A DNA stretch of 64,000 nucleotides from Candidatus Obscuribacterales bacterium. GTDB taxonomy: Bacteria; Cyanobacteriota; Vampirovibrionia; Obscuribacterales; Obscuribacteraceae. Below, one piece after another: positions 8,580 to 33,539 of the stretch. The notes beneath the pieces are model-generated. The model made no database searches. It worked only from the letters and a program-made list of their open reading frames with translations, and had not been told where the DNA came from. The stretch spans positions 2,720,420-2,784,419 of the forward strand of contig OZ245871.1 of assembly GCA_965229195.1 (NCBI GenBank). Direction: 5' to 3'. A program made the translations under genes and the position numbers. Numbering within the stretch: the stretch's first letter is position 1; the number at the start of each line of letters is the position of its first letter.

Positions 8580-8784
8580 TGCGCAAGCCCTAAGCTGTAT
8601 GTTTAATTACAATGACACCAGATGGCCATAATAACTGACTTTGTTGTACTCAAGGCCCGAAGGAAAGTAATTTTAGAATCGCCAGAGACCGCAAACAAAG
8701 GCCCTCTCACTAGTTTATCAAGGCACACGTAAAATGTAGATAAAATGCCAATTCAGATTTCCTCTAGCAACATGCATCGGTTTC

Positions 8785-9834: not shown

Positions 9835-9911
9835 TGGTTTTGTATGTCCAGAAATGCTGCCTCGCGGGTATATATATCTGGTAGTTACTAGAGCCCCTGA
9901 AACCCAACCAG

Positions 9912-12900: not shown

Positions 12901-15900
12901 AGAAAATCTTAAGCGAAGGTACTGAGACTGCCATGCGCAACTTGCTGGCTAATGGAGCCAGGAAAATTGAAGAGAAATCTTTTGCTGCCATAGCTGAGCG
13001 CGTCATTGATGCTGGCATTCAAGGGCCGCTGAGAGAAGCTGCCGTGGCCAGCGTGCGCAAAGAGTTGACTGAGCAGGCGACCAAAGAGTTCGCTCGCCAT
13101 ACCGCTAACTGGCTAGTCTATCAGGGTACTGCTCAAGGTCTAAATGCCGGAGCTGGTGCTGTGGCTAACACCGGTACTGGCGTCTTAGAGGGAGCGGCCG
13201 CCTGGGATTCGAGCAAAGGATTAGGTAGCAACCTTTCTAATGTTGGTCTGCATGCCTTTAATTCTTCTCTTGCCGGTGCTGGTGGCGCCTTGTTCTTCGG
13301 TGGCGTGATCAAGGCTGGTGAAGCTGGATTTAGCAGTTTGAGTCGTGTTAGAGGGCCAGAAGTCGCACGTTCTGAGTTTAGTCTGGCACCAGAAGTTAGA
13401 CCTGGTAGCGAAGTTCGAGGTCCTAACATTGCTCACGATCTGCCATTGCGAGGACAGATTGATTTTTCTCCTAGTGTGGCCATGGCAGCCATTGAGACCC
13501 ATCCACGCACTAGTGGCTCGGCCGTAGATCAGTTGTGGGTGCCTGCTCGCGAGATGGAGAAAATGGCTCCTCATGAGCGTTTGGCTTTAGTGCGTGAGCT
13601 TGGCAAAGACATTACCCCTCTCAATACCGTTGTTAAAGCTGGTCAGTTTGTAGATGGCATTGAAGCAGCCACAAAAGGCTGGACGCAAGATTTCTCGCAT
13701 TTGCCCAAGGCTCTGGATGAGGCCTATGGGCGCTTCCAGGTTACTGGGCAGAAAATCAATGCTCTTGTCGATAAGTACGGCATGCCCTGGCGTGATGGTG
13801 AATTAGACACTGCAGCTATGGCCGCCAGCATGAAAGGTCATCCAGAAGATCTCTCTGTTTTGAGAGCCTATATTGCCGATAGGCAGGCTTACTCTGATGC
13901 ACTTTCTTTGCAGAACAAGGTGCTTGAGCAAAGAGTAGGTGATTTGCAAAAGGCCATGGATGCCTTTACTACTGCCAATGATTTGCCTCATGTAGAGGTT
14001 AAGTCTGGCCGTAGCGCAGCTATGGTGGGCAAGGCCGCTAGCTATCGCGACGGCACTATCACGCTTAACCCAGATAATCTTCTGGCTAAAGAACACACCC
14101 TTGATGTCTTTGAGTCTTCTTACCATGAATTGACTCACCATGAGCAGAGATTCACTGTGGGGCGCAATCTGGCTGATGAGCTAAAAATTGGTGCGAAGGC
14201 AACAGATGAGCAGGTAGGGCACTTCAAAGCCTATTATGAGCACCAGACCAAGCAGACTATGACAGAGGCACAGGCACGACAGTTGCTAGATGCTCGCTCT
14301 AAGCTGAGCCCGCTTGAACTGAGCCCTGAGCAAGCATTGAGAGCAAATAATATTGAAGCTGCTTTCCGTAAGAATGCTCCAGCTGCTGAACAGCTTGTGG
14401 CGTTAGGAAATGACTTCCGCGTTGTTAAAAGCTATCTCAAGCCCTTCCAGATTGGCACAGATCCTAATGTTGCCTATAAGCTTTTGACCAAGATTTTCGA
14501 AGGAAAAGATGAGCTATTAGTTAAGCGCCTGTTCGGCAGCACCACTCCATCGGCAGAAGCACAAGCTTTCTACGGCAGGCTCAGGAATTCGCTTGAGGGT
14601 GGCGGTGATACCTGGACAAAGAGTGACGCTGCGGCTGCCTCTAAGTATTTCAAAGAAACCCTGGAGACAAGGCTGCAAGACATTAATGCTAGCCGTCGCA
14701 GTGTCTACGCAGATTATATGCAGACCCACGAAGTTGATGCTTTCTTAAGCGGTCAGCGCGCTCGTGCTCAAGCGATGGAGCGTGGTCATCAGCCAGCTAG
14801 AGAGATTCGCGCTGCTAACATTCGGGCCAGTGAGAATGCTGAAATTGAGTATCTGCTAGATAATTCTTTCGAGAGTATTGGTCGGCATGTTGGTCAAGAC
14901 GCACCAGCTGTAAAGCCACCGCGGCTCTTCATTGAGGGTGGTCAGGGTGCGGTCAGTGACTATGATGTTGCCACCGATTCTATCATTTTTAGTCATGCCG
15001 CAATAACCGTGAAGAGACCGGCAGCCCAGATGCAGAGCCAGTTCAATCGCTCCGGTAATTTTAAAGACGGAGAAGTGCTTTCTATTCGCGGCTTGACTGA
15101 GGACTTGCCAGGTCTGGTAAAGGCTAAGGTTGTCACTGCCAACTCTGAACGTGTCAGTCTACGTTATGAAGGGCCTTATACGATCTCGCGTCAGTCAGTA
15201 CCTAAAACAAATGAAGAAATCGCTCAACTTGATGCCTTTATTGCTAAGAAGATTGAGCCACGGTTAGTGGAGCCAAACTTCAGTGCTCCTGGTAGCGCAG
15301 AAGCTCATGTTAAGGCGGCTTTGCTCATCGGCGACAATCTCGGTACGGCTGATGCTAGTGTGCTCAACTATGTCCTGAAAAATAGTACTGGAGACAACGA
15401 GTTCAGGCCAATTCTCTTTAAAGAGTTAGCCCGTCGGGCGGAAGAGGGTACATTGCCAGAGCGTACAGCTGCCCTATGGTTTAGCGAAATTGGGCCAGCT
15501 CTTAAATCGAATCCAGTTGAGCGAGCCCGGGCTTACAAAGACTTTCTCGATTACACTCCTGCCGAGATGCGTGATCAAATCACGAAGAGTGGTGAGGCTA
15601 ATGAGTTATTGAAGCGGGCCTTCAACGCTGTTGGCGACGGCAATAGTTGGCCAATCAAAGGCACTGCTGCCGCTCACTGGGCCACTGGCGAAGTGGCTCC
15701 AGCAATTAGACAGTTAGAAAAGATCAAAGATCAAGTGCTTAGCAACTCTGACTTCAGGCAGATCAATTCAGGCGGAGACCGCAGTCAACTGACGATTTGG
15801 CACATGCTCAGCAATGAACGCGATGGTATTCTTGCCAGCCTGAAAAGAGATAAGAGAATTAGCCCCGATTGGCAAGTTTATCCTACTGAGGCTAAGTCTC

Positions 15901-17198
15901 CGTTGGATAGAGCTGGCGGCGACTATCTCTTAGTCAACACCAAAACAGGTGATTTCCACTTCTTAGATGCCACATCGAATCCGCAGAAATCAAATGTATT
16001 TGCCTTGCGTGAACCCGGTGTAATTCGCACTGATAATGGTTTGTTTGATATATCTGGTGCGCTCAAGACTGATGATCCAAGTTCGACGGTGCGTACTCAA
16101 GCTACGAACTTTAAGCCTAATCTTGAAGACCAAATATTGGCCATGACCAGTCGTCCATCGGCTTTCCGTCTAGGAGCAGATGGGCCACCTCTGCCCAGTC
16201 TAACTCGTACAAGTGAAGCTGATGCTACTACTCAGCTAGGTCAACTGATTGATTGGGCGCGAGCCAAAGCCAAGGCTTCAACCGATTCGCGTGAGCGTGC
16301 CGATTGGCTTGATATGGCAACCATTGTAGAGCGTGCCAAAACCTACTCTAATATTCAGGCCACCCAAGTTCAGTCTGCTGAGTTGGGGCAGAGCCTAGAT
16401 TCTGTCACTAGAGCTGAACTAATTAATTATGCGATGACGAAGGTCAAGCGAGTGGAGTATGCTAGGCCCGCTAAAACAACAGCTGTGGCTGATGTTAACA
16501 TCGGCAAAGATCATACAGTCATGCTTAAGACTAAAGATGGCGGCTACTACAATGGTGGCAATCTCGATACCAGCATTGAAGCTGCTCGTCGAGATTTTCT
16601 TGATTCCACCCGTTTGGCTAAAGCGTTGAGCAATGGTCAGGTTGATGCACTCGGTGGCGACGGCAAGGCGCTCAAAGGGCTCAGTGGTTCTGAGCGTCAG
16701 TCTGCCATTGAGAAGCAATTGCGCCTCAACGCTAAATTCCAGGCCAATGTTAAAGCTTTGTCTTCTGTATTCATGAACGATCAAACCGTCATACGTAACG
16801 GTGGTGCTACCGGTAATAATCCAGCGGCAATCTTCGAGAACATTGGCAGCCGGCTGCGGGCGCGCAATGAAGACTCGCTACTTGGTCGGCAGCCTGAAGT
16901 GGCGGTTAAGCCTGGTGTGGCGTCGCCGGCGGTGTCATCGCTTAGGGTGGAAAGCCTTGAAGGCGGGTTGCCTGAGTCGACAAAGCTATTGAAAGAGTGG
17001 AAAGAGCCCCCTTCTCGGCTTGATGCTCCAGCACAGAATATCAGCGATATTCTTGATCTGATTATCGATGAAAATAACTCTATTCCAGTGACTGAGTTGC
17101 CTAGGCTGAAAGCTCTTAGAGATGCCTACAAAGACCCAACAAACCCAGAGCATGCCCGCGCTTTGAAGATGATTCACGATCTTATGCTTGCTGGTTAG
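9912..17198 (+). CDS. Giant multidomain protein (2428 aa). The N-terminal ~900 aa are tandem annexin-like repeats. Next comes a Gly/Ala-rich hydrophobic segment. A C-terminal region carries an HExxH zincin-like motif (SYHELTHHEQ).
   Basis: Uninterrupted 7.3-kb ORF. Repeat units match the annexin consensus (DAVALRQATGNDNW…IVDLL…YKMKYGVGLEQEMSFMTGSDKARLTAVL). HELTH is encoded at ~14124-14138. Confidence 0.85.
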   Translation: MAIDVRQLPKDGGDDKTSPDVSAATKAVHEITAKDQKAQAAAAKGDSAVLPVVKIEDLAKPAKSADAAEKPIDRVALEKDAVALRQATGNDNWVARWADKDKIVDLLKGHTAAELKVLNGIYKMKYGVGLEQEMSFMTGSDKARLTAVLHKKDGNENTIAADRINVALTERGEWTGRSNSIIEKDLRDSLRTANAEQVKQISAEYQERHGKPLAQAIAQDQNLTPATKEALMIYLKGNDKRAPEDFTKLTAAALKSEDLQFFKEVMKDASPQERQAFIAAGGDKQMRAAWSGADLNQARDFSADGKLSTATQVKENTGTVWDNNKGIELALSRMTDSERSDYRIGRQLSGDSSPLSAQDSERLKAMSPAEKATATGQYHTLRASLEAAGNATELARWESMINVRGGSIAATLDRHRGTLWNDSAADIGTSIESMSKKDWEAAKNNPAARKELEQMLDSLNQSEKDKQSLLKIFDQKMSAKTYEESVDTGKVSVVERMDEKWHFYRNDQGAMLAAVSGMSKEDRERYKSDSKFKAELDQKVDSYMSGQARDEAQKILKAVERGEKPVSTIVTKLTEHAANAFVDEGKAIRDIRDAFNADPTLRSRINEPKTDADRALAADFKKAGEQALGKDMYQEYVGELLKTGSISADKMTRLSKGVFSDDEVTTYEDIAKAPKAERDRLKNDIAYQNTALDHLNSDERKIALAAAEQGEYRPEDKIRAHILGFGGSQEIVEQLKQVPTEQLNQLKSDYARKYGSSFESDLMAKLGGQEMAEARRVLTADKSLAERVNIARDESYSTRSGIGAGFADLVSATGKQSDDALDQMLQTAAEANRKGEVASPEQMKNMLDDFATAIDNHRETKSAAADYTADALIAGGAIASVIATGGTDLPLVAAMLAAGGAATKVGSKAVLMGSDYDFKLSTVAKDASVGALTGATAVFGQAQLAAVFKVGQQAAKTAATATLSTLARESVDVVAKRAGIELAEGVAGKQLFVAGYEKILSEGTETAMRNLLANGARKIEEKSFAAIAERVIDAGIQGPLREAAVASVRKELTEQATKEFARHTANWLVYQGTAQGLNAGAGAVANTGTGVLEGAAAWDSSKGLGSNLSNVGLHAFNSSLAGAGGALFFGGVIKAGEAGFSSLSRVRGPEVARSEFSLAPEVRPGSEVRGPNIAHDLPLRGQIDFSPSVAMAAIETHPRTSGSAVDQLWVPAREMEKMAPHERLALVRELGKDITPLNTVVKAGQFVDGIEAATKGWTQDFSHLPKALDEAYGRFQVTGQKINALVDKYGMPWRDGELDTAAMAASMKGHPEDLSVLRAYIADRQAYSDALSLQNKVLEQRVGDLQKAMDAFTTANDLPHVEVKSGRSAAMVGKAASYRDGTITLNPDNLLAKEHTLDVFESSYHELTHHEQRFTVGRNLADELKIGAKATDEQVGHFKAYYEHQTKQTMTEAQARQLLDARSKLSPLELSPEQALRANNIEAAFRKNAPAAEQLVALGNDFRVVKSYLKPFQIGTDPNVAYKLLTKIFEGKDELLVKRLFGSTTPSAEAQAFYGRLRNSLEGGGDTWTKSDAAAASKYFKETLETRLQDINASRRSVYADYMQTHEVDAFLSGQRARAQAMERGHQPAREIRAANIRASENAEIEYLLDNSFESIGRHVGQDAPAVKPPRLFIEGGQGAVSDYDVATDSIIFSHAAITVKRPAAQMQSQFNRSGNFKDGEVLSIRGLTEDLPGLVKAKVVTANSERVSLRYEGPYTISRQSVPKTNEEIAQLDAFIAKKIEPRLVEPNFSAPGSAEAHVKAALLIGDNLGTADASVLNYVLKNSTGDNEFRPILFKELARRAEEGTLPERTAALWFSEIGPALKSNPVERARAYKDFLDYTPAEMRDQITKSGEANELLKRAFNAVGDGNSWPIKGTAAAHWATGEVAPAIRQLEKIKDQVLSNSDFRQINSGGDRSQLTIWHMLSNERDGILASLKRDKRISPDWQVYPTEAKSPLDRAGGDYLLVNTKTGDFHFLDATSNPQKSNVFALREPGVIRTDNGLFDISGALKTDDPSSTVRTQATNFKPNLEDQILAMTSRPSAFRLGADGPPLPSLTRTSEADATTQLGQLIDWARAKAKASTDSRERADWLDMATIVERAKTYSNIQATQVQSAELGQSLDSVTRAELINYAMTKVKRVEYARPAKTTAVADVNIGKDHTVMLKTKDGGYYNGGNLDTSIEAARRDFLDSTRLAKALSNGQVDALGGDGKALKGLSGSERQSAIEKQLRLNAKFQANVKALSSVFMNDQTVIRNGGATGNNPAAIFENIGSRLRARNEDSLLGRQPEVAVKPGVASPAVSSLRVESLEGGLPESTKLLKEWKEPPSRLDAPAQNISDILDLIIDENNSIPVTELPRLKALRDAYKDPTNPEHARALKMIHDLMLAG

Positions 17199-17325
17199 CC
17201 TTGCTGAAGTCAAACTTGATAGTCTTAGCTGTTGCTAAGATTGCGCGACTTTTAACCGGCTTCAGCGGAAGATTGAGTTATTATGGCTAGCCGTTCGCTT
17301 TCTGATAGTAGCTGCTAGGAGCGTC

Positions 17326-18054
17326 GTGAAGACCACAAGGGTCTCAATATTCAAAACTGCTTTAGTTCTTTCTTTGCTGTCCTTATCTACTCTAGAAGTG
17401 CTGGCGGCAGAAGTAAGACAACCTGTGCACGTCTACTTTTTTACCGGTGGATTCATTGACGTATTCAGTCGTGAAACAGTCAAGAAGATAAAAACGAAAA
17501 CCCAAAACATTGGCCGAGAGCTAGAGATTCCGGTAAAGTTTGAACGACATTGGTTTACCAATTGGCGGTCGGTTTCCAAAAAGATTCAAGCGGATCGCAG
17601 CAAGGCCAAGGTCGTCTTGCTGGGACATAGCTGGGGCGCTGCCGGAGCTGTCCATTTGGCTCGAGATTTAGATAAGAAAAACATTCCAGTTGACCTACTA
17701 GTGACCATCGATACTGTTTCAGTGCCTGGAGCATCTCAAGCGAGTACTATTCCGGCAAATGTGCGTGTTAACTACAACTTCTATGAAGGAAGCGACCTGT
17801 TTTTGCACGGTCTGCGAAATAATAAACGAAAAGGTTCAAGTTCCGTCGATGGCATTCATAACGTCAAAGTTTTGGTCGGGCCCACTTTCTCACCGCATAT
17901 GACTATTGATGACAAGATTGAACCGTTAGTTTCCTGTCAGATCAAAATGTTGATGCTTGATCAATTGGATCAACTGAACATTCCCGATCAACTCGACAAA
18001 AAGCATCTGGCAGAGCGGATAACTGCGCTGGAAGAGAGTTTGTCAACAGACTGA
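17326..18054 (+). CDS. Secreted alpha/beta-hydrolase-like protein (GHSWG nucleophile elbow).
   Basis: Signal peptide. GxSxG motif (LLGHSWGAAGA). Product call is tentative. Confidence 0.55.
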   Translation: MKTTRVSIFKTALVLSLLSLSTLEVLAAEVRQPVHVYFFTGGFIDVFSRETVKKIKTKTQNIGRELEIPVKFERHWFTNWRSVSKKIQADRSKAKVVLLGHSWGAAGAVHLARDLDKKNIPVDLLVTIDTVSVPGASQASTIPANVRVNYNFYEGSDLFLHGLRNNKRKGSSSVDGIHNVKVLVGPTFSPHMTIDDKIEPLVSCQIKMLMLDQLDQLNIPDQLDKKHLAERITALEESLSTD

Positions 18055-18061
18055 ACTGCAA

Positions 18062-19558
18062 TCAGGGTTGCAGCTCGATTTCGCCGGGCCGCCAGGTCTT
18101 GTTGAACCATGGCTCTAGCGGGCCATACAAGCGCAGGATCATGAACCAACCCTTGCCTGGAATCGTCTGCACCCAGTTGTTCTCTTTTCCTGCCGGTGCT
18201 TTGGGTCCGAAGTAGACATCTACCGAGCCATCGGCATTGATCTTGAGGCCCTTGTTCTGGCTACTGACACTCGGCGCCTGTTGGTCGGTCTGCACCATGG
18301 AGCGGGTCTGGTTGTCGTAGACTATGACCGACCAGAAATCTTTTACAGGAATGTTCGGCGGTAGGTGCAGCTTGTAGTTCTTTCCACCATCAAAGTGGTT
18401 ACCCTTCGCATCTTGCACTGACCAGGGGTATTGCGAACCCCGGCCCACCATCTTCTCTTCCATGGCAGGCGTGACGCCAGTGGCAAAGTAATAGTAGAAA
18501 GCGGCACCGTCTAGGTTGCTTACACCGGGCGCCGCCTCGAATTTATAGCCACCGAAGAACGGCAAGCGCCAGGCGCTGTTCGGATAGAAATAAGCCTCTT
18601 TTGAACGTATCTTGAAAGCAATAGTCCGGGCCGTCACTGCGCCGATATTCGCAGCATCGGTCAGGATCTTCTTCATCCGTTCATCGGGATTGAATGGTTG
18701 CCCTTTGACGATGCCTATTGAGGCGAACAGGCCTAATGTGGTGGGATCAGAGCCCTCCGCTGGCTCTTCCTGGATCACTTGGTTCAAAAGATTCCAGAAC
18801 GAGTAGTCACCAGGCGCGACGAAGTTCGATGGAATTCCAGAGCCGTTGACGAATTTCATTGGCGGCGGGCTAGCTGCGTCTGCCAAACGATAGATTCGCA
18901 GGTTCTTCTTGACTGAGTCTACTCCTGGTTTGGTTGAACCGTCCACAACGAAGGCACGAAATACGAGCCAATTACCGAAGGTGCTAGGCCGCACTACGTT
19001 ATACCCTGACGGGATTTCGCCTTTGAATCCAGGCGGCACTAGGAGGTATTTGCCACCTTCACCTTTATCGGCTCCGGTGATGCCAACGTCGGCCACCCAC
19101 TTGTACCAGAAGTCGTTGACCAAACCCAGCACCTTGGGCGGAATCTCGACTACTAATGGCCCCTTGCTGGTATCGACCCAGATGAAATTGTAAATCGTGT
19201 TGTCGTTCGCTGTTAGCTCAACAGTCCTGGGATCAACCAGATTCTCCCAGATTATGTCGGTCTGGTTATCGGGTCCGCATTTGCGTATTGATTCGCGCAT
19301 ACCAGCCTGGTTGACGATTGGCAGCGCCAAGAGATAGGCTTGCAGCGCCCGCGAACGATCTAGGTTGTCGTAGATCTTGTCAACGGTATCGGCCGATGGG
19401 TAGCCATAGTTTAGATTCAGGGTCCCGATCGATGACTCGATTTTGTTAGGAACTGCTACGCCTGGTGCGAAAGATGTTGTCATCTTGAAAGTCTGTGCGG
19501 AGGCGCTCGTGGCGAATGCGCTGGCTAAAATCGCACCAAGCAGTGCGTGTCTCGTCAT
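18062..19558 (-). CDS. Secreted DUF1254/DUF1214-type protein (498 aa).
   Basis: Signal peptide. Length and conserved blocks (YNFIWVDTSKGPLVVEIP…, WSVIVYD…, ENNWVQT…) are typical of the DUF1254+DUF1214 family. Recalled from memory. Confidence 0.7.
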   Translation of the reverse strand: MTRHALLGAILASAFATSASAQTFKMTTSFAPGVAVPNKIESSIGTLNLNYGYPSADTVDKIYDNLDRSRALQAYLLALPIVNQAGMRESIRKCGPDNQTDIIWENLVDPRTVELTANDNTIYNFIWVDTSKGPLVVEIPPKVLGLVNDFWYKWVADVGITGADKGEGGKYLLVPPGFKGEIPSGYNVVRPSTFGNWLVFRAFVVDGSTKPGVDSVKKNLRIYRLADAASPPPMKFVNGSGIPSNFVAPGDYSFWNLLNQVIQEEPAEGSDPTTLGLFASIGIVKGQPFNPDERMKKILTDAANIGAVTARTIAFKIRSKEAYFYPNSAWRLPFFGGYKFEAAPGVSNLDGAAFYYYFATGVTPAMEEKMVGRGSQYPWSVQDAKGNHFDGGKNYKLHLPPNIPVKDFWSVIVYDNQTRSMVQTDQQAPSVSSQNKGLKINADGSVDVYFGPKAPAGKENNWVQTIPGKGWFMILRLYGPLEPWFNKTWRPGEIELQP

Positions 19559-19829
19559 GTTCTTGTCTCCTTCTGCGCCGCAGTCGCTCGTCTTGCCAAG
19601 ATTTCTGGCTCAGTATGGTACCGCATCTCTCGCTCTGGTTACCACCGTAGAGATGTCAGCAAAACTCCCGTGCCATGAAGACTTCGATTTTTGTCGTTGG
19701 CAAAGCTCATATGTAGGGATTAGGTCTGGTGATGACTTGAACCAATGATGCGGCACATTTTAGCTACTACTACGCTAGCTAGTAAGTGGTGCTAAAAATA
19801 GAGACTGATTGAGAAATTACTCCTCCGAA

Positions 19830-19864
19830 AGAGCAGAGAGATTTTGCCAGAATCTCTCTGCTCT
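19830..19864. other. 14-bp perfect-stem hairpin (AGAGCAGAGAGATT / AATCTCTCTGCTCT, 7-nt loop).
   Basis: Lies ~80 bp downstream of the last gene of the minus-strand operon. No clean U-tract on either strand. Candidate operon-end structure or protein-binding site. Confidence 0.4.
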
Positions 19865-19939
19865 TGTTGGGGTAAGTTTGAGTGCTACTGCGCTTTTCGC
19901 ACGGTCTTGGATGTGGCTTAAACCTGGACTATATCTGCC

Positions 19940-20644
19940 TTAGATGTCCTTGGCCTTGCTCTCCATCGAGAACAGGTCTTTGCCGCTGGGTGAGGGCGGC
20001 AGTTGCTGACGGCTGACCAGCTTGAAGGTTTTGCCGTCGAAGTCGTAGGTGTTGATGGAGGCCGATGGCACCCCTTCTTTGCCCAGCTGCTCAAGATCTT
20101 CGCCAGCCCATTGCCATTGGCTTACGCTGACGACAGTTTCGTGAGTGCTGATCAAGACCACCGCTGATGGTGGCAGATTGTTGATGCGTTCTTTCTGGAA
20201 GTCGAGAAAACGCACCGCGACATCGTGCCAGTTTTCGCCACCTTCGGGGCGATAGTGCACCTTGCCGACTGTGCGCCGTTCCTGCCACTGGGTCGGGAAC
20301 TTCGCTGCGCGACCCTTTTTGGTGAGGTCGACGAAGATGCCAAAGTCGATTTCGCGCAGGCGCTCATCCAGCATCAGCTCGATTTTCGTCGGCAGCTTGC
20401 TCAGGGCGAAGGCGCCGGTTTGGGTGGTGCGCTTGAAGGGCGAACTGAAGCCGTGGGTCGGTCTTTCGCTCTCGGGCAGAGAGGCAAAGAAGAGAGCAAG
20501 CGCTTCTCCCTGCTCGTCACCGAGTTGAGAAAGCGGCACCGCTGAGTCTGGTAGAAGCTCGGGCGGAACAACCTCAGCATCGGGGTTGCTCATTCGCCAG
20601 CGCATGGCAGCGCTTTCACAGTGTCTTAGAACATATATTCGCAT
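19940..20644 (-). CDS. Histidine phosphatase superfamily protein (PGM-like). Start at MRIYVLRHCES.
   Basis: N-terminal RHG-type catalytic motif (VLRHCES). GGAG 8 nt upstream. Last gene of the operon. Confidence 0.65.
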   Translation of the reverse strand: MRIYVLRHCESAAMRWRMSNPDAEVVPPELLPDSAVPLSQLGDEQGEALALFFASLPESERPTHGFSSPFKRTTQTGAFALSKLPTKIELMLDERLREIDFGIFVDLTKKGRAAKFPTQWQERRTVGKVHYRPEGGENWHDVAVRFLDFQKERINNLPPSAVVLISTHETVVSVSQWQWAGEDLEQLGKEGVPSASINTYDFDGKTFKLVSRQQLPPSPSGKDLFSMESKAKDI

Positions 20645-20669
20645 GGGTGCTCCATTGTATCGTGTTGGT

Positions 20670-21872
20670 TTAAGCGCTGGCGCTGCTTTTCGACAAGGCT
20701 GCTCGAATGTAGGCGAGAATCTTCTTCTCACCAGACCCGGGCACCAGAATTCTTTTGCTGTTCTTGCCTTTCTTGTCGTTGATGATGTTGGCAGCGAAGC
20801 TCTCGAGTTGAGAAAGGAATGCCGCTAGTTGCGGCTGGTTGATGTTTTCAGCGCAGACGCCGAAGTTGTTGTCGCCGACGGCATGAGCGTTGATCTGTTG
20901 CTCGTAGACTGCCAGCGGAATCAGGTAGGCCGGAATGCCTAGGTACATTGCCTCCGAAACCAGGGTGTGGCCACCGGTGGTGACAATGCCCTGGCATTCG
21001 GCTAGCACATCGAGGAAGCGTGGATCGCCATGGCGACGCAAAGTGACGTTGCTGGGCAGCCCAGCCAGCAGATGCTGCGGAAGTTCTTTGACAAAGACAT
21101 GGAAGTGATACTCGGGGGCTGAGGACAGCACGGTGAGTACCTCTTCGTAGCTTTGGACAAAGTCTCTTTGCGACGAGATGTAGACCAGAATTGATCTGGA
21201 ATTGGTCCCGCTTCCAGATTTGCATTTGTCCTTCTGAGCCTGGAGGCGCCGCTTCTTCATCGCCACGATGGCTGGCTTGATGATGGGCGGGCAGATGATC
21301 ACCTTTTCGCTGGCAGCACTTTTGCCGTCAGCGCGCCGTGGCACAGTGAAGAAGGAGCAGGCCAGCCGCAAGGCTGCCGTTGGAAAGAAGAGCCGGAGTC
21401 GAGCTACTTCATCGAGGCAGGTCTGGCCCGCGATGGCTTGGCTGTAATCACCGACCAGATATTTGCTCTGCTGGTCGATTGTCACCAGGGGCGTGCCGCT
21501 GGCATAGGCGTACTGAGCGCTGACAGGCTCGTAGTCTGAGATCACCAGGTCGGGTTTGCCGATCAGCTTTTGCGTCAATTCCATGGCCGCCAGGTTGATG
21601 GCCTCATGGTCAATGCCGCTGGCGGCGATGCGTCGGGCAGTCTCAGCGAAATCGAGGCCCTGGGCGTTGCCGACGTAGAAGGGCACCGAGACAGTCAACA
21701 CCGTGACATTTTCGCTCTGGCGGAAATGCTCTTCGTAAAAGCTTTTGCTTTCGCCATAGACGAAGAGCACGATGCGATTGTCTTTCGCCAGTTCGTCGAG
21801 CAGCGGCAGCTGGCGGTAGGTGTGACCCATGCCGATACCACACACTCCATAGAGTATCTTTTTGCTTTTCAT
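20670..21872 (-). CDS. Glycosyltransferase, MGT/UDP-glycosyltransferase-like (GT-B fold). Start at MKSKKILYG.
   Basis: N-terminal YGVCGIGMGH. C-terminal GT-B donor-binding-like block (GIVTTGGHTLVSEAMYLGIPAYLIPLAVYEQQINA). Its ATG overlaps the upstream stop (ATGA). Confidence 0.7.
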   Translation of the reverse strand: MKSKKILYGVCGIGMGHTYRQLPLLDELAKDNRIVLFVYGESKSFYEEHFRQSENVTVLTVSVPFYVGNAQGLDFAETARRIAASGIDHEAINLAAMELTQKLIGKPDLVISDYEPVSAQYAYASGTPLVTIDQQSKYLVGDYSQAIAGQTCLDEVARLRLFFPTAALRLACSFFTVPRRADGKSAASEKVIICPPIIKPAIVAMKKRRLQAQKDKCKSGSGTNSRSILVYISSQRDFVQSYEEVLTVLSSAPEYHFHVFVKELPQHLLAGLPSNVTLRRHGDPRFLDVLAECQGIVTTGGHTLVSEAMYLGIPAYLIPLAVYEQQINAHAVGDNNFGVCAENINQPQLAAFLSQLESFAANIINDKKGKNSKRILVPGSGEKKILAYIRAALSKSSASA

Positions 21873-22810
21873 AAATCCTCCAGTGTGTGGTTGATGAAGG
21901 GTAGTGAGCCTTCCAGCTCCCAAACCGGTAATTTCGTCAGCGCTCGGGAGAGCTCGTTCGCCAGTCGCTTGTTGACGCCGCTGGGCGGGCTGCCAGCAAA
22001 GACGAGACGGCCGCCAGCTAAGACGATGTCAGCATTGACGGCATCGAGGAAGAAGGGATAGAGCTTATGCAGCGCCGAGAGGGCGCTGAGCTGCCTCGAC
22101 TTTTCGGCGCCGTCGTTGAGACGCGGCAAGCTGATCAAGGTCACTGCCTGTGGTGCCGGGTCGGCATAGAAGCGCTTGCTCAGACTGAAAGCAGAGCGAC
22201 CTTCGTAGCCAACTTCCTCGTTTTCCAGCGCTTCCGGCAAGTGTCTGGCCAGGTCTTCTGCCCTGGTGGTGATGGTGCGGGTGCCGGCGATGGCAGTGAT
22301 AATTGCAGGGTCTTCTTTGCTTGAACCCGGTGAAATTTTCACCAGGGTACGGTTGCCAGAGAAGACTTTGTAGCCGCGCGCTAGAGCACTCAGCGTTACT
22401 GCTGTTTTGCCCACACCGGAATGGCCGACGATCAGGCTCAATTGCTGTTGCTGATTTTCCAGGCAGGCAGCGTGAACGCAGTAGAGCCCCTGCTTCAGCC
22501 ACTTCTGCCGGGCAATGCCGTAGGTGAGGAAGATCAGGTCCATCAGCGCGTCAGCGGTGCTCGGCGTGAAGAAGGTATAGCCGTAGCCGTTCTTGCTCAG
22601 CGACAATCTCGGCCTGCTTGATTGCCGCAGGGCGATAGTGACCAGGCCTTTCTCTCTTTTCGCGCTGGGATCAGCTAGCTCGACGCCTGGCAGATAGGCC
22701 CCTAAGAGCAGACACGCTGCCGGGTCATCGAAGAGCGGCTGGGGCAGGTCGAGCAAAACTTGCAGTGCACCTGGCAGCCGCAAGAGATACTGATGTTTGG
22801 CGCTAGACAT
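21869..22810 (-). CDS. HPr-kinase-related P-loop protein (HprK C-terminal-domain-like).
   Basis: Walker A GHSGVGKT in a ~310-aa protein of HprK-like size. Start at MSSAKHQ, which overlaps the upstream gene by 8 nt. Confidence 0.55.
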   Translation of the reverse strand: MSSAKHQYLLRLPGALQVLLDLPQPLFDDPAACLLLGAYLPGVELADPSAKREKGLVTIALRQSSRPRLSLSKNGYGYTFFTPSTADALMDLIFLTYGIARQKWLKQGLYCVHAACLENQQQQLSLIVGHSGVGKTAVTLSALARGYKVFSGNRTLVKISPGSSKEDPAIITAIAGTRTITTRAEDLARHLPEALENEEVGYEGRSAFSLSKRFYADPAPQAVTLISLPRLNDGAEKSRQLSALSALHKLYPFFLDAVNADIVLAGGRLVFAGSPPSGVNKRLANELSRALTKLPVWELEGSLPFINHTLEDL

Positions 22811-23993
22811 TTTGTACCTCCTTTCGGCTGGCTTGGTTATTGGCTTGAGTATTGGTTGGAGCGCAGCTTTGCCGCTGGCTTTGCTGATAGACCAGTTCAG
22901 CGACATGCTGCGCGCCGCCTGAGCCAAACCGCTCTACCAGTGCCGTTAGGCGGCTGTTTTGCGGCAGTGCTTTGATTTGCCGGCGCAGCAATTTGGCCAA
23001 GCGGGTCTTTGCTCTCTTCGAGCTTTGCCCCTGCTCTAGGGCGGCGGCAATGCTTTTAAGAACAGCACCTTGGTCGGCGCTGTAGTCGATGGCGCTGACT
23101 GGCAGAATCTGGTGCCAGTCGACCAGGCCGTCCACCAGACTGCTCTGGTTCAAAAGCGCCAACTGCTGACCCTGGCTGTCGTTGGCCGGTGGCAACCAGA
23201 TGGTTGGTGTGTCGAAGCGAGCAGCGTCGTAGATATTGCCCAGACCCGGCGTCATCAGAGCATATTTTGCTTGTTGCAGAACAACTTGCATTTGCTCGCG
23301 GCTGAGGTTCTTGGCGCCGAGGTGAGCCAGTGCAGCCGAGATAGCGGAGTTGGCTGCGACCACGACCTTTTGGCCAGCCAGGGTGGGCAGCACTGCTTCG
23401 AGAATTTGGCGGGCATAAGAGAGCGCCTCATTGCCTGTCCACAGCGGATTGCTCAGGCCGCCGAGGTTGACCAGAACCAGGTCTTTGGCGCTGTCGGTCT
23501 TGCCGCCGGGCTCATTGTCTGACTGCTGGCCGACAATTGGCGCTACCGTCTGCCAGTTGGCGGCCGCGAATTCAGGCGATTTCAGCCGCTCTTCCACCCC
23601 GAAGAAGTTCTGGGCGATGTACAAATCGACGTGCTGAACTACGGCTGGAATGGTCTTCCAATACCAGGTGAGTGGGTCGTAGATACAGACCGTCAGACCC
23701 TGCCCTAGTGCTTTTTCGGCCATGGCAAAGTCGAGGGCGGTGAGGAAGATGTCGTATTGAGCGAAGATTTCTTTCAGTGCTTCTTCGCTGAGCTGGCTGG
23801 CGTCATAGATGGCGTCGTAGGCAAGCGGCCTCTGCAAATCGAGAGTGTGACCGGTGCCGACGAAACCAATGGTGCTGAACTGCTTGCGCAGAAAAGGGAA
23901 GCAGTCAGCAATGGCAGCGGTTGGTCCGAAGCCAAAGGCCTCGGCGTTGAGCAACAGCCGCGGCTTTGTCTGTTCAGTATTTTTCCTGGCCAT
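22803..23993 (-). CDS. Hypothetical GT-B-like (glycosyltransferase-like) protein.
   Basis: C-terminal block resembles a GT-B nucleotide-sugar-binding half (…YALMTPGLGNIYDAARFDTPTIWLPPANDSQGQQLA). Weak assignment. Overlaps the upstream gene by 20 nt. Confidence 0.45.
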   Translation of the reverse strand: MARKNTEQTKPRLLLNAEAFGFGPTAAIADCFPFLRKQFSTIGFVGTGHTLDLQRPLAYDAIYDASQLSEEALKEIFAQYDIFLTALDFAMAEKALGQGLTVCIYDPLTWYWKTIPAVVQHVDLYIAQNFFGVEERLKSPEFAAANWQTVAPIVGQQSDNEPGGKTDSAKDLVLVNLGGLSNPLWTGNEALSYARQILEAVLPTLAGQKVVVAANSAISAALAHLGAKNLSREQMQVVLQQAKYALMTPGLGNIYDAARFDTPTIWLPPANDSQGQQLALLNQSSLVDGLVDWHQILPVSAIDYSADQGAVLKSIAAALEQGQSSKRAKTRLAKLLRRQIKALPQNSRLTALVERFGSGGAQHVAELVYQQSQRQSCAPTNTQANNQASRKEVQNV

Positions 23994-25122
23994 AGATTAA
24001 CCTTCCGAGTTTAGTTAGTTTTTCTGACCGGCGCAGGGCTGCTAACCGAGTCTGGTTGGTAAAACGAGGGCGCTTGCTGGCGTGCATCAAGGCGTCACGA
24101 ACATTGCTGCCCAGTCCGCTCTCAAAGGCGTCCTGCCGGGCCTGGCAAGCGCTCTCATCGCTCTGCCTTTGCGGGCCGAAGGCGATGTATGCGACTGTGC
24201 GCGTCTGCTCTGAGACGTTGCTGCTGTTGGCGTGGGTGGTACGGCTGTCCCAAGAAATCAGATCACCAGCACGCAGCGGGCAGAGCTGAGCCCCAGCGGT
24301 GAATTCGGCGGCGATGGCGTGACCGAGGTCGAGTTCCACGTACTCACCCTGGTTTTTGGCCATGGAGCCGTAAACCGAGAAGCTGTCGCGGGAGCCGGGT
24401 ACGCCGACGAAGGTGCCGCGCTCGGCTGGGCAGTCGGCTAGCGCCAGAACACCCTGGACAGTGCGGAAGTCGGGGTGCACATTGGGATTTTGGTCCACGT
24501 GCAAGGGCAGGGCTTTGCCATCGGCAAGACCTGGAAGCTTGATGCCAAGCCGGTCGAAGGTCGTCCACAGGTCTGCCCGGCCCCAGATCAGAACGTAGTG
24601 CAGGTAGACACGCACGCTCTGGCGGACGGCGGCGATGGCCTGGTCATGGTAGATTTCGAAAAATCCACGAGAGATGATCGGGACAGCGGCTTGATCGACT
24701 GGAATGTTGTCCCAGGTCGAAGGCTTGCTCAGGTCGCAGGTGCCTTCGCTGAGAGCCAGCAGAAGTTCATGCATGCGGGCCACGACTTCCTGGCATTGGC
24801 TCTGGCTGACGACGTTGGCGCCGACGACAATGCCATAGCGATTCCACGAATCGACGAACTCTTTCTCTTGGGTCAGCGGGTCGAAACCGATGACATAACC
24901 GTCCTGGTCGAGAGGAAGACGTGGGGCTGCGGCCGGCTTTGCGGTCGTGGCTAACTGGCGGCCATACTGGGCGTAGCGAGCGACCACTTTGGGATGGGCG
25001 CAACGCTTCTGCAGTTTGGCAATGAGGCGGGTCAAAAGCAGATCGAGCGGTTCTTCGCCTTTGTCGATGCGCTGAACCAGGTTGCGTATTGATTGGTCAA
25101 TAATCCACATGTTTTTTCTCAC
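23974..25122 (-). CDS. Phytanoyl-CoA dioxygenase (PhyH)-family Fe(II)/2-oxoglutarate-dependent oxygenase.
   Basis: HxD facial-triad-like LPLHVDQN, a distal His (TTHANSS) and PhyH-like length. First gene of the operon. Confidence 0.6.
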   Translation of the reverse strand: MRKNMWIIDQSIRNLVQRIDKGEEPLDLLLTRLIAKLQKRCAHPKVVARYAQYGRQLATTAKPAAAPRLPLDQDGYVIGFDPLTQEKEFVDSWNRYGIVVGANVVSQSQCQEVVARMHELLLALSEGTCDLSKPSTWDNIPVDQAAVPIISRGFFEIYHDQAIAAVRQSVRVYLHYVLIWGRADLWTTFDRLGIKLPGLADGKALPLHVDQNPNVHPDFRTVQGVLALADCPAERGTFVGVPGSRDSFSVYGSMAKNQGEYVELDLGHAIAAEFTAGAQLCPLRAGDLISWDSRTTHANSSNVSEQTRTVAYIAFGPQRQSDESACQARQDAFESGLGSNVRDALMHASKRPRFTNQTRLAALRRSEKLTKLGRLIYGQEKY

Positions 25123-25145
25123 AGAGTTGTCGACCGATGGAGCTC

Positions 25146-25161
25146 CATCGACCTTTTGTTA
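25146..25161. promoter_or_regulatory. Perfect 16-bp palindrome CGATGGAGCTCCATCG, ~20 nt upstream of the dioxygenase start.
   Basis: Seen in the sequence. Candidate operator. An upstream TTGACA-like hexamer is also present at ~25341. Confidence 0.35.
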
Positions 25162-25572
25162 CGTGAAAGCTGTTGATTGGCAGCTGGTAGATGTTGCCCT
25201 TTTGCTGTCTAGTGGCCGTGAAGATTCCCAGAGAGGATCTCGTCAGGTGGTTCTTGCAAGGGCCGTTGTGGTGCTGGGCGTAGGCGGTAAATAAATCTCA
25301 GAAAGTTAGAAGGTGATGTATTCAAACTACTTGGCTCTTTGACATCAATACAAGATCTGAGTAGTAAAGAGTTGCAAAGAGTTGAGGCCGATATTATGGA
25401 GAGTTTAGATGTGGGGCCGTAGTAGTGCAGCTAGCGGAGTTTCATGGGGTGGGGAAAGGGTTTCAACTATAAAAACTAATAGATAGGCGAAAAAAGAAAG
25501 CAAAGTGAGAGCCGTGGCTCCTACTCTGCTTTCCCAAAAGAGAAGTTCTCTTTTTAGTGCCTCGATAGCTGC

Positions 25573-27141
25573 TTACAGCTTCGAGTACTGGCGCAGCAAC
25601 TGGCCCAGGGTGCGAACAGCCACACCGGTAGCACCAGCCGCATCGACACCATGGTCGTAGCGACGGAAGCTCGTGCCAGCCACGTCCATGTGCACCCAAA
25701 CCGTGCCATCCTTGATGAACTCGCGCAGGAACCAGCCAGCCGAGATAGCACCAGGGCCGGTACCGCTGTTGTTGAGGTCAGCCATGACGCCCTTGTTGCA
25801 GTCCCTGTACTCATCGAAGAGTGGCAGTTCGTGCATCGGTTCGCCGGCTTCTTTCGAGCACTTCAGCACTTCGCGAGTGAAGCGCTCGCTATTGCCCATC
25901 ACGCCCGAAATCTTGTCACCAAGCGCCGTTTCGACATCACCGGTGAGGGTGGCCACGTCGATCACCTGGTTGGCACCGCTGACGGTCTGGATGTAGTGCA
26001 GAGCATCAGCCAGCGTCAGGCGACCTTCGGCATCGGTGTGACCGATTTCGACAGTCAGACCGGCCATGGTCTTGAGGATGTCGCCCTGGCGCATGGCCTT
26101 GGCGTCGATCAGGTTTTCGCTGGCGGCAATCACTGCCCGCACCGAAATCTGAGGCTTCAGCACCGACAGAATCGACATCACCTGCAACACAGCGGCAGCA
26201 CCGCCCATGTCGTTCTTCATGTCGAGCATGCCGTCGTAGTCTTTGGCGTTGAGGCCACCGGTATCGAAGGTGATGCCTTTGCCAACCAGACCGATCACCT
26301 GCTGAGTCAGACCGATTTCGGGGTCGTAGCTCATGGCGATGAAGGCCGGAGGATTTTGCGAGCCCTGATTGACAGCCAGAAGGCCGCCCATCTTGAGCTT
26401 CTTGATGCCAGCCAGGTCGAGCACTTCGCACTTCACCAGACCGCCCGAGTTCTCGGCCACAGCGCGAGCCATGGTAGCGATCTTCTTGGGCGTCATGATG
26501 TTGGAAGGCTCGTTCACCATGTTGCGGGCGCGATTGGTGGCGTCACCAAGCAGGCGACCCATGAGGATGCCCTTCTTGGCCGCAGTGAGAGTGCCGGCGG
26601 TGCAGAGCATCGTCAGCGACTTCAGGTGCGTGCGCGGTGCTTCGTTCTGCCATTCCCGCGTCTTGCGGTGGTTGGGCTCGTAGTCGGCCAGCACGGAATA
26701 CTCCGTCACGACCTGAGCGAACTGCTCGACGGTGAACCCTTGCAGGTCAACGTCAATCAGCGGGAAGATCAGGCGCTCGGAACCGGCCACGTCACGAGCG
26801 GTGGTGAACGCTTCAGCCAGAGCTGCGCGCAGACCATTGAGGGTGAGCTTGGAGCGTGCACCCAGGCTGACCAGGATGATTTTGTCCAGACCCTTGGTGG
26901 TGAGATCGGTGTCGATCACCTTGGTTTGGATGAACTTGGCTTGAAAGCCGTCCTGCTTGATACGACGCTTGATCAGACCGTTGGTCAGATCGTCAGCGGC
27001 GAGAGCCTGGCCGGAAAGCTTTTCACCAGAGAATACAACGAGAAGGAGGTTGGCGCGTTCTCCAGCTTTGACCCGCGTAATTGCCGAGTCAAGACGGCTG
27101 GACGTTGCCGAAATGATGAGAGACATGTTTGTTTTCCTCAA
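25573..27141 (-). CDS. pepA: Leucyl aminopeptidase (M17 family).
   Basis: M17 signature NTDAEGRLTLADAL and other conserved metal-binding blocks. Length 522 aa. Confidence 0.9.
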   Translation of the reverse strand: MRKTNMSLIISATSSRLDSAITRVKAGERANLLLVVFSGEKLSGQALAADDLTNGLIKRRIKQDGFQAKFIQTKVIDTDLTTKGLDKIILVSLGARSKLTLNGLRAALAEAFTTARDVAGSERLIFPLIDVDLQGFTVEQFAQVVTEYSVLADYEPNHRKTREWQNEAPRTHLKSLTMLCTAGTLTAAKKGILMGRLLGDATNRARNMVNEPSNIMTPKKIATMARAVAENSGGLVKCEVLDLAGIKKLKMGGLLAVNQGSQNPPAFIAMSYDPEIGLTQQVIGLVGKGITFDTGGLNAKDYDGMLDMKNDMGGAAAVLQVMSILSVLKPQISVRAVIAASENLIDAKAMRQGDILKTMAGLTVEIGHTDAEGRLTLADALHYIQTVSGANQVIDVATLTGDVETALGDKISGVMGNSERFTREVLKCSKEAGEPMHELPLFDEYRDCNKGVMADLNNSGTGPGAISAGWFLREFIKDGTVWVHMDVAGTSFRRYDHGVDAAGATGVAVRTLGQLLRQYSKL

Positions 27142-27197
27142 GCGCTAGGCTTATGGGCTTTGCGCATGTTTGAGTTTGTTGGTGAGTGAAACCAGCA

Positions 27198-30437: not shown

Positions 30438-30906
30438 TAGAGATTTGCATGGGTAAGCAGCTACTCTTTCAATTATTAAGATGACCGCTCAGCCTCATGG
30501 GGTGAGCAATTGCTTGCCTGGGTTGACCTTTGACAACCTGGATGGTTAGCGCCAACTGCGTCGATTTAATAATCTAGCTTGGCAAGCTTAGAGAATACTA
30601 CTTTACATCAATCTGTAATATGCGCCTTGGCGGGCTGCTAATTCGTAGGTTTTGAGTTCCACAACTCTTCCCGTTCGCACCCAAGCAAAGCACTCGAAAA
30701 ACAAACCCAGCGCATTACTTTCGATTCCTTCACCTTCCCCACAATGGAAGCGTGTCTTATCGAACGTCTGTTGATGTGCTGCGGTTTTGATTTTTATGAG
30801 TGCTGAGCTGGTCAATTCTGGAAGAGACGGTATCTAACTGTGCAATCGCGTCTGTGCTGCGAACCATCGGCTCCGTTGCACCATCAATTTCACCAAAGGA
30901 CAATTC

Positions 30907-33094: not shown

Positions 33095-33168
33095 GCTCCA
33101 CTTCTTTTTTCGGACTGGGGGTGGCGTCGACTGACTTGAAAAAGTTAGTTGGCGCCACCGCCTTTTTT
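33089..33168 (+). terminator. Two tandem rho-independent terminators. The first is GAAGT-aagctcc-ACTTC + TTTTTT at the stop codon. The second is GGGGTGGCG…CGCCACCGCC + TTTTTT.
   Basis: Both are stem-loops immediately followed by T6 runs. Confidence 0.75.
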
Positions 33169-33194
33169 AACTCACCACTAAAGGCTATCCAATC

Positions 33195-33527
33195 ATGGAT
33201 GCTTTCCAACTTTTCCAACTTTTTGTCCCCGCCTTGTGGGCATTTCTTGCCTGCATCTTGGGCGGTTTCGCCACCGGCGTTGTCGGTGTACTGGTGTTGA
33301 CCAACGTCTTCAAGGTCAACTATGAAACGGCTGGTCGTCGCAGCTTTGTTGTCGGTGTCGTAGGAACGGCACTGGCCATCGTTGTCGGCGCTCTGCTCAC
33401 AGCTACCAGCGCTGGCGGTTTTCTGCCCGCGTTCATTCTTATCGCCCCTTCCAGTGTCATCTACGCCCTTGCTGGCGTGGTTGTCGTTTTGCTGGCGTGG
33501 GGGGCGCTCATTCTCTCAGCCCGATAG
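33195..33527 (+). CDS. Small integral membrane protein (110 aa, 3-4 TM helices).
   Basis: Very hydrophobic ORF directly downstream of the SPFH gene. A possible SPFH-partner membrane protein, by inference. Confidence 0.5.
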   Translation: MDAFQLFQLFVPALWAFLACILGGFATGVVGVLVLTNVFKVNYETAGRRSFVVGVVGTALAIVVGALLTATSAGGFLPAFILIAPSSVIYALAGVVVVLLAWGALILSAR

Positions 33528-33539
33528 GAGAAATATTCT

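Follow-up and report, generated by a model that had tools for sequence, protein, structure and literature searches.

What do five tightly coupled genes make when no substrate gene is visible beside them? This question is raised by a block of minus-strand genes in a 64,000-nucleotide stretch of DNA (hereafter the window) from Candidatus Obscuribacterales bacterium (assembly GCA_965229195.1, contig OZ245871.1, positions 2,720,420 to 2,784,419). We find that four of the genes, g1 to g4, are a conserved, horizontally spread cassette, and that this previously undescribed cassette is probably a glycoside-building operon with a kinase step. No published description of it was found in the literature searched. 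The open reading frames (ORFs) are arranged as follows, in window coordinates.

19940-25110, minus strand: the operon, five ORFs, all co-directional
23974-25110, minus strand: g1, predicted PhyH family Fe(II)/2-oxoglutarate (2OG) dioxygenase, 378 aa from the ATG at 25110
22803-23993, minus strand: g2, GT-B glycosyltransferase from a family without a name, a distant relative of cytosylglucuronate (CGA) synthase
21869-22810, minus strand: g3, P-loop kinase with the fold shared by phosphoenolpyruvate carboxykinase (PEPCK) and HprK, 313 aa
20670-21872, minus strand: g4, GT-B glycosyltransferase, Pfam Glyco_trans_1_3 (MJ1255/VC2487 type)
19940-20644, minus strand: g5, branch 1 histidine phosphatase, the fifth operon gene and specific to this lineage

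Consecutive genes share 20, 8 and 4 nt at the first three junctions and are 25 nt apart at the last, with internal ATG starts at 23993, 22810, 21872 and 20644. These are the junctions given in the original prediction, which was made from the sequence alone and had described a tightly coupled five-gene operon.

We scanned one genome per GTDB species with an alignment of g2, which yielded 77 loci (numbered below with the prefix L), and compared all five window proteins with every fetched locus by tblastn. The genes for PhyH, g2, the kinase and the PF13528 glycosyltransferase are syntenic in approximately 45 non-redundant loci from many phyla, so that homologues of four of the five genes are not scattered but stay together and are repeatedly fused. 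Carriers include Saccharibacteria, Peregrinibacteria and Peribacteria within the Candidate Phyla Radiation (CPR) and, outside it, Melainabacteria, the non-photosynthetic group in which homologue names put the window (order Obscuribacterales); Moranbacteria and Uhrbacteria have versions without PhyH. The cassette is also found in Micavibrio and other Alphaproteobacteria, in several Gammaproteobacteria, in a Magnetococcales-labelled genome, in Bdellovibrionales, in Endozoicomonas, Kistimonas and Salinisphaera, and in Nanoarchaeia. It is present in Chlamydiae with a permuted gene order, and in a Woesearchaeota locus the kinase and the PF13528 glycosyltransferase are retained, followed by a different glycosyltransferase and a NUDIX gene. 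Across phyla, identity to the window proteins is 44-56% for g1, 41-48% for g2, 31-40% for g3 and 43-49% for g4, and is lower (27-36%) for chlamydial and Endozoicomonas g1. Even when Melainabacteria, Saccharibacteria and Nanoarchaeia are compared, g1, g2 and g4 are 41-56% identical. The unit proposed originally had five genes; the conserved one has four, since the histidine phosphatase was found only in the four closest genomes, all Obscuribacteraceae relatives (L009-L012, at least 94% identity).

Gene fusions tie the central genes together. g2 is joined to g3 in L007/L068, g3 to g4 in four chlamydial loci and L004, and g4 to g2 in four Endozoicomonadaceae/Salinisphaera loci (781 aa), while all three are united in one protein in L057, L060 and L077. 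Because they are fused in several different combinations, g2, g3 and g4 behave as one functional unit. The members of the cassette are uncharacterised, and the kinase puts its fold to a use that has not been reported before.

Sec-like hydrophobic N-termini are present on chlamydial cassette proteins, on L004 and on the L077 triple fusion, and the chlamydial versions look exported. Among the CPR, DPANN and Melainabacteria versions none was flagged except on one over-extended ORF, and none of the window's five translations has a hydrophobic N-terminus. In Chlamydiae bacterium PFAD01000008.1 (L054, 4088-9834), as in L047, L050 and L051, Sec-like N-termini occur on PhyH, the kinase-glycosyltransferase protein and the g2 homologue. 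The chlamydial kinase-glycosyltransferase protein is a true fusion of approximately 700 aa. In L054, L051 and L048, g2 bears an unmatched N-terminal extension of approximately 300 aa, and in L054 a eukaryote-type Sulfotransfer_2 gene follows the cassette.

We then ask what each enzyme does. The g1 protein matches PF05721 (E 7e-12, 46.5 bits against a cut-off of 22). Its presumed iron ligands, H204-x-D206 and H293, and R304, the 2OG-binding arginine, are at least 95% conserved in 46 homologues. By both profile and ligands, g1 is the PhyH-type Fe(II)/2OG dioxygenase that had been proposed. The HxD motif, rather than HxA/G, argues for a hydroxylase or oxidase and not a halogenase. By profile, the nearest solved relatives are the 2OG-dependent nogalamycin enzymes SnoK (E 2e-7) and SnoN (E 5e-3), in a match of no more than some 90 residues, around the latter half of the double-stranded beta-helix, that leaves the N- and C-terminal regions of g1 (about 90 and 70 residues) unmatched. 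In the nogalamycin pathway both enzymes, which are PhyH-like, work on the carbohydrate part of a glycoside.

No Pfam family matches g2, and sequence searches of the PDB with the single protein or a profile returned nothing. By fold it is a GT1-like GT-B enzyme and, like g4, resembles MurG and MGD1 at that level. The sole curated family that it matches is TIGR04467, CGA synthase, at 75 bits against a cut-off of 300 (E 6e-21). The alignment is full-length (residues 20-368 against model positions 5-378). The fold search and this relation bear out the earlier call of a GT-B-like protein. g2 is thus a full-length, GT-B relative of the CGA synthases BlsD and MilC of blasticidin S and mildiomycin biosynthesis, but the score gap means that it is not an equivalog. 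CGA synthases move glucuronate from UDP-GlcA onto free cytosine or hydroxymethylcytosine. In the BlsD and MilC pathways, too, dioxygenases, kinases and phosphatases work alongside the glycosylation of a base, whereas the radical-SAM, aminotransferase and peptide-ligase genes of nucleoside-antibiotic clusters have no counterpart in the g2 operon. Homologues of g2 in Streptomyces and Pseudomonas (35-41% identity) occur without the kinase, the PF13528 glycosyltransferase or PhyH, and their context gave no clue to the acceptor. The Streptomyces avicenniae homologue sits near GFO/IDH/MocA and short-chain dehydrogenase/reductase genes. In Pseudomonas viridiflava (L074, 7983-10141 and 15320-16471), the g2-family gene overlaps a GT4 (Glycos_transf_1) gene in a two-gene unit; the elongation factor P rhamnosyltransferase gene earP lies approximately 5 kb from the g2-family gene and is probably unrelated.

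The g3 protein had been called an HprK-like kinase, and this holds for the fold and for local similarity around the P-loop. Its P-loop, GHSGVGKT, is invariant across homologues, and its Pfam matches cover only the P-loop region of AAA models. Structural superposition on solved members places g3 in the PEPCK/HprK kinase fold. Closer kinship to HprK did not hold. Scores against TIGR04352 and TIGR04355 (HprK-related kinase A and B) are 15.8 and 23.2 bits, far below cut-offs of 200, and these matches are confined to about 55 residues around the P-loop. PF07475 (Hpr_kinase_C) gave no match to g3 at E<=0.1, and three homologues (P0041, P0044 and P0055) reach 24-30 bits, under its cut-off of 33.3. 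Searches of the PDB with the single protein and with a profile found only P-loop matches; the profile reached HprK at E 3.6e-4, in the P-loop region only, and PEPCK at E 0.07. In structure, g3 aligns with PEPCK over both domains, and its N-terminal domain matches PEPCK and not HprK. By fold, therefore, g3 is nearer PEPCK than HprK and lies outside the HprK-related kinase A/B families. It is much smaller than ATP-dependent PEPCK (313 aa versus approximately 520-600 aa), with 9-11% sequence identity. The g3 family is distinct and rare: an exhaustive profile search of 1.84 billion representatives recovered about 203 clusters (50% identity) at E<=1e-30.

The g4 protein had been assigned to the MGT glycosyltransferases. 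It scores only 24.9 bits against TIGR01426 (cut-off 260), over the C-terminal nucleotide-sugar domain alone, and is instead a PF13528 (MJ1255/VC2487) GT-B enzyme (E 4e-36, 125.4 bits where the cut-off is 25, covering positions 2-321 of the 322 in the model). The narrower subfamily TIGR00661 gives 107 bits, under its cut-off of 196. H17, D113, T299/G301/H302/E307 and E324/Q325/N328 are at least 95% conserved in 52 homologues. We read H17 and D113 as a putative GT1-type His/Asp catalytic pair and the C-terminal GGH...E and EQ..N as probable nucleotide-sugar motifs. The g5 protein matches PF00300 (E 7e-26, 91.6 bits against a cut-off of 21.7), and its translation has the catalytic RH motif (RHCES) near the N-terminus, in agreement with its description as a histidine phosphatase. 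No specific equivalog was reached, CobC being the best at 48 bits against 163. We also considered a defence system and rejected it: none of the five proteins matched the anti-phage models of PADLOC-DB 2.0 at E<=0.01, and g2 has no relative in IMG/VR viral contigs.

If these enzymes act on one acceptor, is it encoded nearby? We assigned Pfam families to 150 proteins flanking the cassette, and no neighbour family is universal. The most recurrent is the YjjX-type nucleoside triphosphatase (NTPase) PF01931, with 7 proteins in 5 CPR loci; in L029 and L031 these form co-oriented tandem pairs directly upstream of the cassette. There are four NUDIX neighbours, two of them NrtR-like regulators; in L005 one lies 22 nt upstream of PhyH in the same orientation, and in L002 another is inside the operon. 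GFO/IDH/MocA oxidoreductases lie downstream of the cassette in three Melainabacteria loci (L013-L015), and a haloacid dehalogenase-type (HAD) hydrolase abuts it in an Uhrbacteria genome (L008). Among the recurrent neighbours in this census we found no PqqD or RiPP recognition element (RRE; RiPP, peptide made by ribosomes and modified after translation), cyclase, nucleoside triphosphate (NTP)-transferase, protease or exporter. The operon and the flanking genes tested likewise hold no RRE/PqqD, macrolactam synthetase, leader peptidase or exporter.

Small ORFs were equally unrevealing. About 46 loci were scanned to 600 nt from the cassette, and none of their small ORFs is conserved across lineages: the 1131 ORFs of 15-90 aa group together only among close relatives. 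In the window, region 25123-25572 was a candidate site for a precursor peptide, and its sole plausible same-strand ORF has 38 aa and a TTG start (25209-25325). We reject it, as it is broken in two of five close relatives (start lost in L009 and L010, frameshift in L009), and differences between relatives are mostly amino-acid-changing. The earlier statement that no substrate gene is visible therefore stands: there is no substrate, precursor, cyclase or PqqD gene beside the block.

The same search bears on the suggested analogy with lasso peptides. The kinases PadeK, ThcoK and LppK of lasso and other RiPP clusters resemble g3 in being P-loop proteins of the HprK/PEPCK fold that stand outside the phosphotransferase system beside modifying enzymes. 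However, g3 scores only 16-23 bits with a PEPCK-like N-terminal domain, and the RRE, precursor, NTP-transferase, cyclase and exporter of those clusters were not found with it. Four elements accompany RiPP-type HprK-like kinases, namely RRE, NTP-transferase, precursor and exporter (PMC13381572), and none of them is conserved here. The analogy does not carry over, and the block is neither a lasso cluster nor a RiPP cluster of another kind.

Several neighbours were observed in one or two loci. Directly downstream of the cassette in Obscuribacterales JAIEOQ010000006.1 (L019, 11201-11862) lie two paralogous ORFs of 98-100 aa on the same strand, in this lineage only. In L014 (12498-13517) and L015 (12584-13561), downstream of the cassette and the GFO/IDH/MocA gene, a protein of approximately 330 aa without a Pfam match has an HVDG motif and a later histidine, and may be a second non-haem-iron oxygenase. 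In Endozoicomonas acroporae Acr-14 (L064), a RING-like protein (2828-3436) and an F-box-like protein of 633 aa (9404-11305) flank the fused cassette and look like eukaryote-type effector genes. By sequence motifs only, nicotinamidase/isochorismatase-like and nicotinate phosphoribosyltransferase-like genes lie divergently upstream in L034 (2319-5038) and L055 (3228-5935). The NrtR-like NUDIX regulators are in L002 and L050, and L008 has an NAD synthase gene near the cassette. Together these neighbours may give a pyridine-nucleotide context.

How might the enzymes work together? We tentatively favour a cytoplasmic assembly line in which a common small molecule made independently of the locus is built up into a diglycoside that is hydroxylated and, for a time, phosphorylated. 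The acceptor would have no dedicated gene and would be available to bacteria and archaea alike, most likely a nucleobase- or nucleoside-like or sugar-like compound. In this scheme g1 would hydroxylate or oxidise the acceptor beforehand, or a sugar carbon afterwards; g2 would transfer the first sugar from a nucleoside diphosphate (NDP)-sugar; g3 would phosphorylate the glycoside with ATP; and g4 would add the second sugar. In this lineage g5 would then remove the phosphate, which would thus be a transient ("cryptic") handle. We infer a small-molecule acceptor because no precursor gene or RiPP machinery is conserved, because the two-domain PEPCK-like kinase has a small-molecule kinase architecture, because the only curated relative of g2 glycosylates a free nucleobase, because the nearest solved relatives of g1 act on glycoside sugars, and because the recurrent neighbours are nucleotide and phosphate hydrolases and sugar-type oxidoreductases. 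The idea of a self-contained tailoring module survives in outline, with a small molecule likelier than a peptide as its target and with a conserved unit of four genes that is widespread and fused.

There is precedent for such a sequence of steps. The glycosaminoglycan linker is made by glycosyl transfer, sugar phosphorylation, a second glycosyl transfer and dephosphorylation. The order of its enzymes (GalT-I, the xylose kinase FAM20B, GalT-II and the histidine-type phosphatase PXYLP1) parallels the operon order of glycosyltransferase, kinase, glycosyltransferase and histidine phosphatase. This is a likeness of logic, as the linker enzymes are not homologous to those of the operon and FAM20B has a protein-kinase fold. 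Cryptic phosphorylation also occurs in the biosynthesis of streptomycin and of the nucleoside antibiotics polyoxin and nikkomycin. Unlike the phosphatase of such transient-phosphate pathways, its counterpart g5 lies outside the conserved core.

Several points weigh against this assembly line. Every chemical step and the order of the steps are deduced from enzyme class and gene order. Phosphohydrolases neighbour the cassette in only about one quarter of the loci and come from unrelated families; therefore, a transient phosphate is not a property of the conserved core. Since g2 falls far below the CGA-synthase cut-off, a nucleobase acceptor is only a lead. The Sec-like N-termini of chlamydial and some gammaproteobacterial versions are hard to reconcile with a purely cytoplasmic pathway in those organisms. 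Finally, no solved lasso-type kinase was among the structural matches of g3, and HprK-fold kinases of known function outside PEPCK act on proteins or peptides (PMC13381572).

This last point is the natural starting place for a protein- or peptide-directed pathway, in which g1 would hydroxylate a side chain, g2 and g4 would build an O-linked disaccharide on it, and g3 would phosphorylate a serine or the sugar, in the manner of the HprK-type kinases of lasso and related RiPP clusters. The substrate would then be either a cellular protein with wide conservation or a peptide whose gene lies elsewhere in the genome. Some g3 homologues do have sub-threshold matches to Hpr_kinase_C, and F-box and RING-like proteins flank the cassette in Endozoicomonas acroporae. 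A hydroxylase with two glycosyltransferases also mirrors the glycosylation of collagen and Skp1: prolyl and lysyl hydroxylases act on side chains, after which collagen carries hydroxylysine-Gal-Glc and Skp1 is glycosylated on hydroxyproline. We nevertheless consider this unlikely. No precursor ORF is conserved across lineages; RRE/PqqD, NTP-transferase, protease and exporter genes are not among the recurrent neighbours; the kinase falls outside TIGR04352/TIGR04355 with an N-terminal domain that matches PEPCK rather than HprK; and the F-box and RING-like neighbours are confined to one closely related group. The same Endozoicomonas loci, with their flanking eukaryote-like effector genes, could speak for another target, a host or prey molecule modified by delivered enzymes at the expense of the ATP and NDP-sugars of that cell. 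Such a role would account for the bias towards episymbionts, predators and intracellular bacteria, since carriers are mostly CPR, DPANN, Chlamydiae, Bdellovibrionales, Micavibrio and Endozoicomonadaceae. It would also fit the Sec-like N-termini seen in the chlamydial proteins, in L004 and in the L077 triple fusion, and the eukaryote-type Sulfotransfer_2 gene after the cassette in L054. The window proteins lack a hydrophobic N-terminus, however, and none was flagged in the CPR, DPANN and Melainabacteria versions bar the one over-extended ORF; the phosphatase, NUDIX and NTPase genes that adjoin the cassette speak for metabolism inside the cell. Genome collections, through their content, or routes of gene transfer may themselves have produced the taxon bias, and we regard a host- or prey-directed function as doubtful, indeed improbable.

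Wide horizontal spread is typical of resistance genes, and macrolides and rifamycin are inactivated by glycosylation and phosphorylation. GT1-type glycosyltransferases and a kinase might accordingly detoxify a xenobiotic or antibiotic, with the oxygenase as an extra inactivating step, and g4 is weakly similar to MGT, YjiC and OleD-type enzymes. The chance of this seems slim: translational coupling, strict synteny and repeated fusion of three different activities indicate successive steps on a single molecule rather than alternative routes to its inactivation, the neighbourhood has no conserved efflux pump or regulator, and mobile-element genes are not among the recurrent neighbours. Slimmer still is the case for an envelope glycolipid or glycopolymer, in which GT-B enzymes akin to MurG and monogalactosyldiacylglycerol (MGDG) synthase would decorate a lipid or lipid-linked carrier and PhyH would hydroxylate its acyl or isoprenoid chain. 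Both g2 and g4 resemble MurG and MGD1 at the fold level, and PhyH is named after a lipid (phytanoyl-CoA) hydroxylase. Against this, the window translations have no hydrophobic N-terminus (membrane-spanning segments were not otherwise tested), flippase, polymerase and lipid-carrier genes do not recur nearby, and the cassette is common to bacteria and DPANN archaea, whose lipids and walls differ chemically.

Is the block in the window a transcription unit in its own right? The start of g1 was examined in an alignment of related genomes. A candidate GTG at 25122, the start assumed originally, is GCG in two relatives, and the ATG at 25110 is invariant; 25110 is therefore the most likely start. Around the five genes lie the following elements.

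25111-25440, minus strand: C-rich leader, presumed promoter and 5' untranslated region (UTR), with long stretches invariant in five Obscuribacteraceae genomes
25135-25150, no strand: perfect 16-bp palindrome CGATGGAGCTCCATCG, 25 nt 5' of the g1 start
25490-25554, minus strand: double-hairpin intrinsic terminator with a U-run, directly 3' of the upstream M17 aminopeptidase gene
19829-19865, minus strand: closing hairpin with a 15-bp stem and 7-nt loop, then UUUC, at the 3' end of the operon

The upstream terminator (-35 kcal/mol, z -4.35) was equalled in stability by none of 200 shuffles and was partly flagged by a terminator scan. Its stems differ by compensatory changes between the window and L009 on one side and L010-L012 on the other, and this comparison supports the structure directly. 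The terminator insulates the operon from the M17 aminopeptidase gene. The closing hairpin had been placed at 19830-19864 with a 14-bp stem; it is real and one base pair longer (-27.6 kcal/mol, z -5.3), and is kept in four related genomes in which the sequence beyond it diverges. Terminator-like matches inside the block are no commoner than in shuffled sequence (9 observed versus 7.0 expected). With terminators at both ends, the five genes are bounded on both sides, and the overlaps and the conserved flanking hairpins agree with the proposed tight coupling. These data indicate that the five genes are a real, insulated, terminator-bounded operon.

The leader of approximately 330 nt is conserved although the g2 proteins of the same five genomes are only 81-95% identical. 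We rejected a riboswitch or other known RNA there: no Rfam family matches the leader at gathering scores, and its folding energy lies in the ordinary range (z -1.25). Relaxing the threshold to E<=1 gave a single match, mir-553 on the terminator hairpin (19821-19873, plus strand, 30 bits against a cut-off of 82), which we regard as a chance match. No sigma-70-type consensus promoter was found in the leader. The palindrome CGATGGAGCTCCATCG is present and perfect as described but lies at 25135-25150 and not at 25146-25161. It is kept in relatives except for one central C>T change, and is possibly an operator or a 5'-UTR hairpin. As a statistical signal it was discarded, with one such palindrome observed and 0.92 expected by chance per 64-kb window in shuffles.

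The operon does not stand out in base composition. It had been called markedly more GC-rich than the neighbouring DUF1254 gene, but the difference is weak (0.56-0.60 versus 0.54). GC at third codon positions (GC3) is 0.68-0.70 in operon genes, 0.63 in the DUF1254 gene, 0.74 in the upstream M17 aminopeptidase gene (pepA), which is thus the richer, and 0.77 in the Band-7 gene. A horizontally acquired GC island was rejected, as operon GC3 is similar to that of the neighbouring pepA and Band-7 genes. Across the window, gene GC3 is bimodal, 0.63-0.77 for the DUF1254, operon, pepA and Band-7 genes and 0.41-0.51 for most others (for example, 18062-27141 and 30800-34658 versus 36458-63514), which suggests two codon-usage classes or a mosaic origin. 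A 512-aa ORF (25651-27189, plus strand) lies antisense to the whole M17 aminopeptidase gene (25573-27141, minus strand) and is most likely a shadow ORF of this high-GC3 gene, not a gene. Elsewhere in the window, eukaryote-like repeat proteins lie side by side within 7731-18054: a tetratricopeptide repeat protein (7731-8579), a leucine-rich repeat protein (8785-9834) and a 2428-aa protein (9912-17198) whose sole Pfam match is a weak annexin repeat.

What does the cassette mean for its carriers? It persists in some of the smallest known genomes. That it is near-intact across domains, retained in such tiny genomes and independently fused points to strong selection for an undescribed product. A bolder view, which we think rather unlikely, is that the cassette is a horizontally exchanged glyco-phospho-modification system built around a miniature PEPCK-fold kinase, that it makes a new class of hydroxylated phospho-diglycosides, and that its exported, fused chlamydial and gammaproteobacterial versions attach this group to a host or prey molecule. 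If this were true, the system would belong mostly to organisms that live on or in other cells (CPR, DPANN, Chlamydiae, Bdellovibrio-like and Micavibrio predators, and Endozoicomonas), and the miniature kinase would have a role new for its fold. A cultured carrier, Endozoicomonas acroporae, exists, and the genes are small and the window proteins free of hydrophobic N-termini, so they should express readily. Once its product is known, a GT-B family without a Pfam model and about 200 clusters of PEPCK/HprK-fold kinases would gain a function, and the product could be a metabolite or modification important for episymbiotic, predatory or intracellular life.

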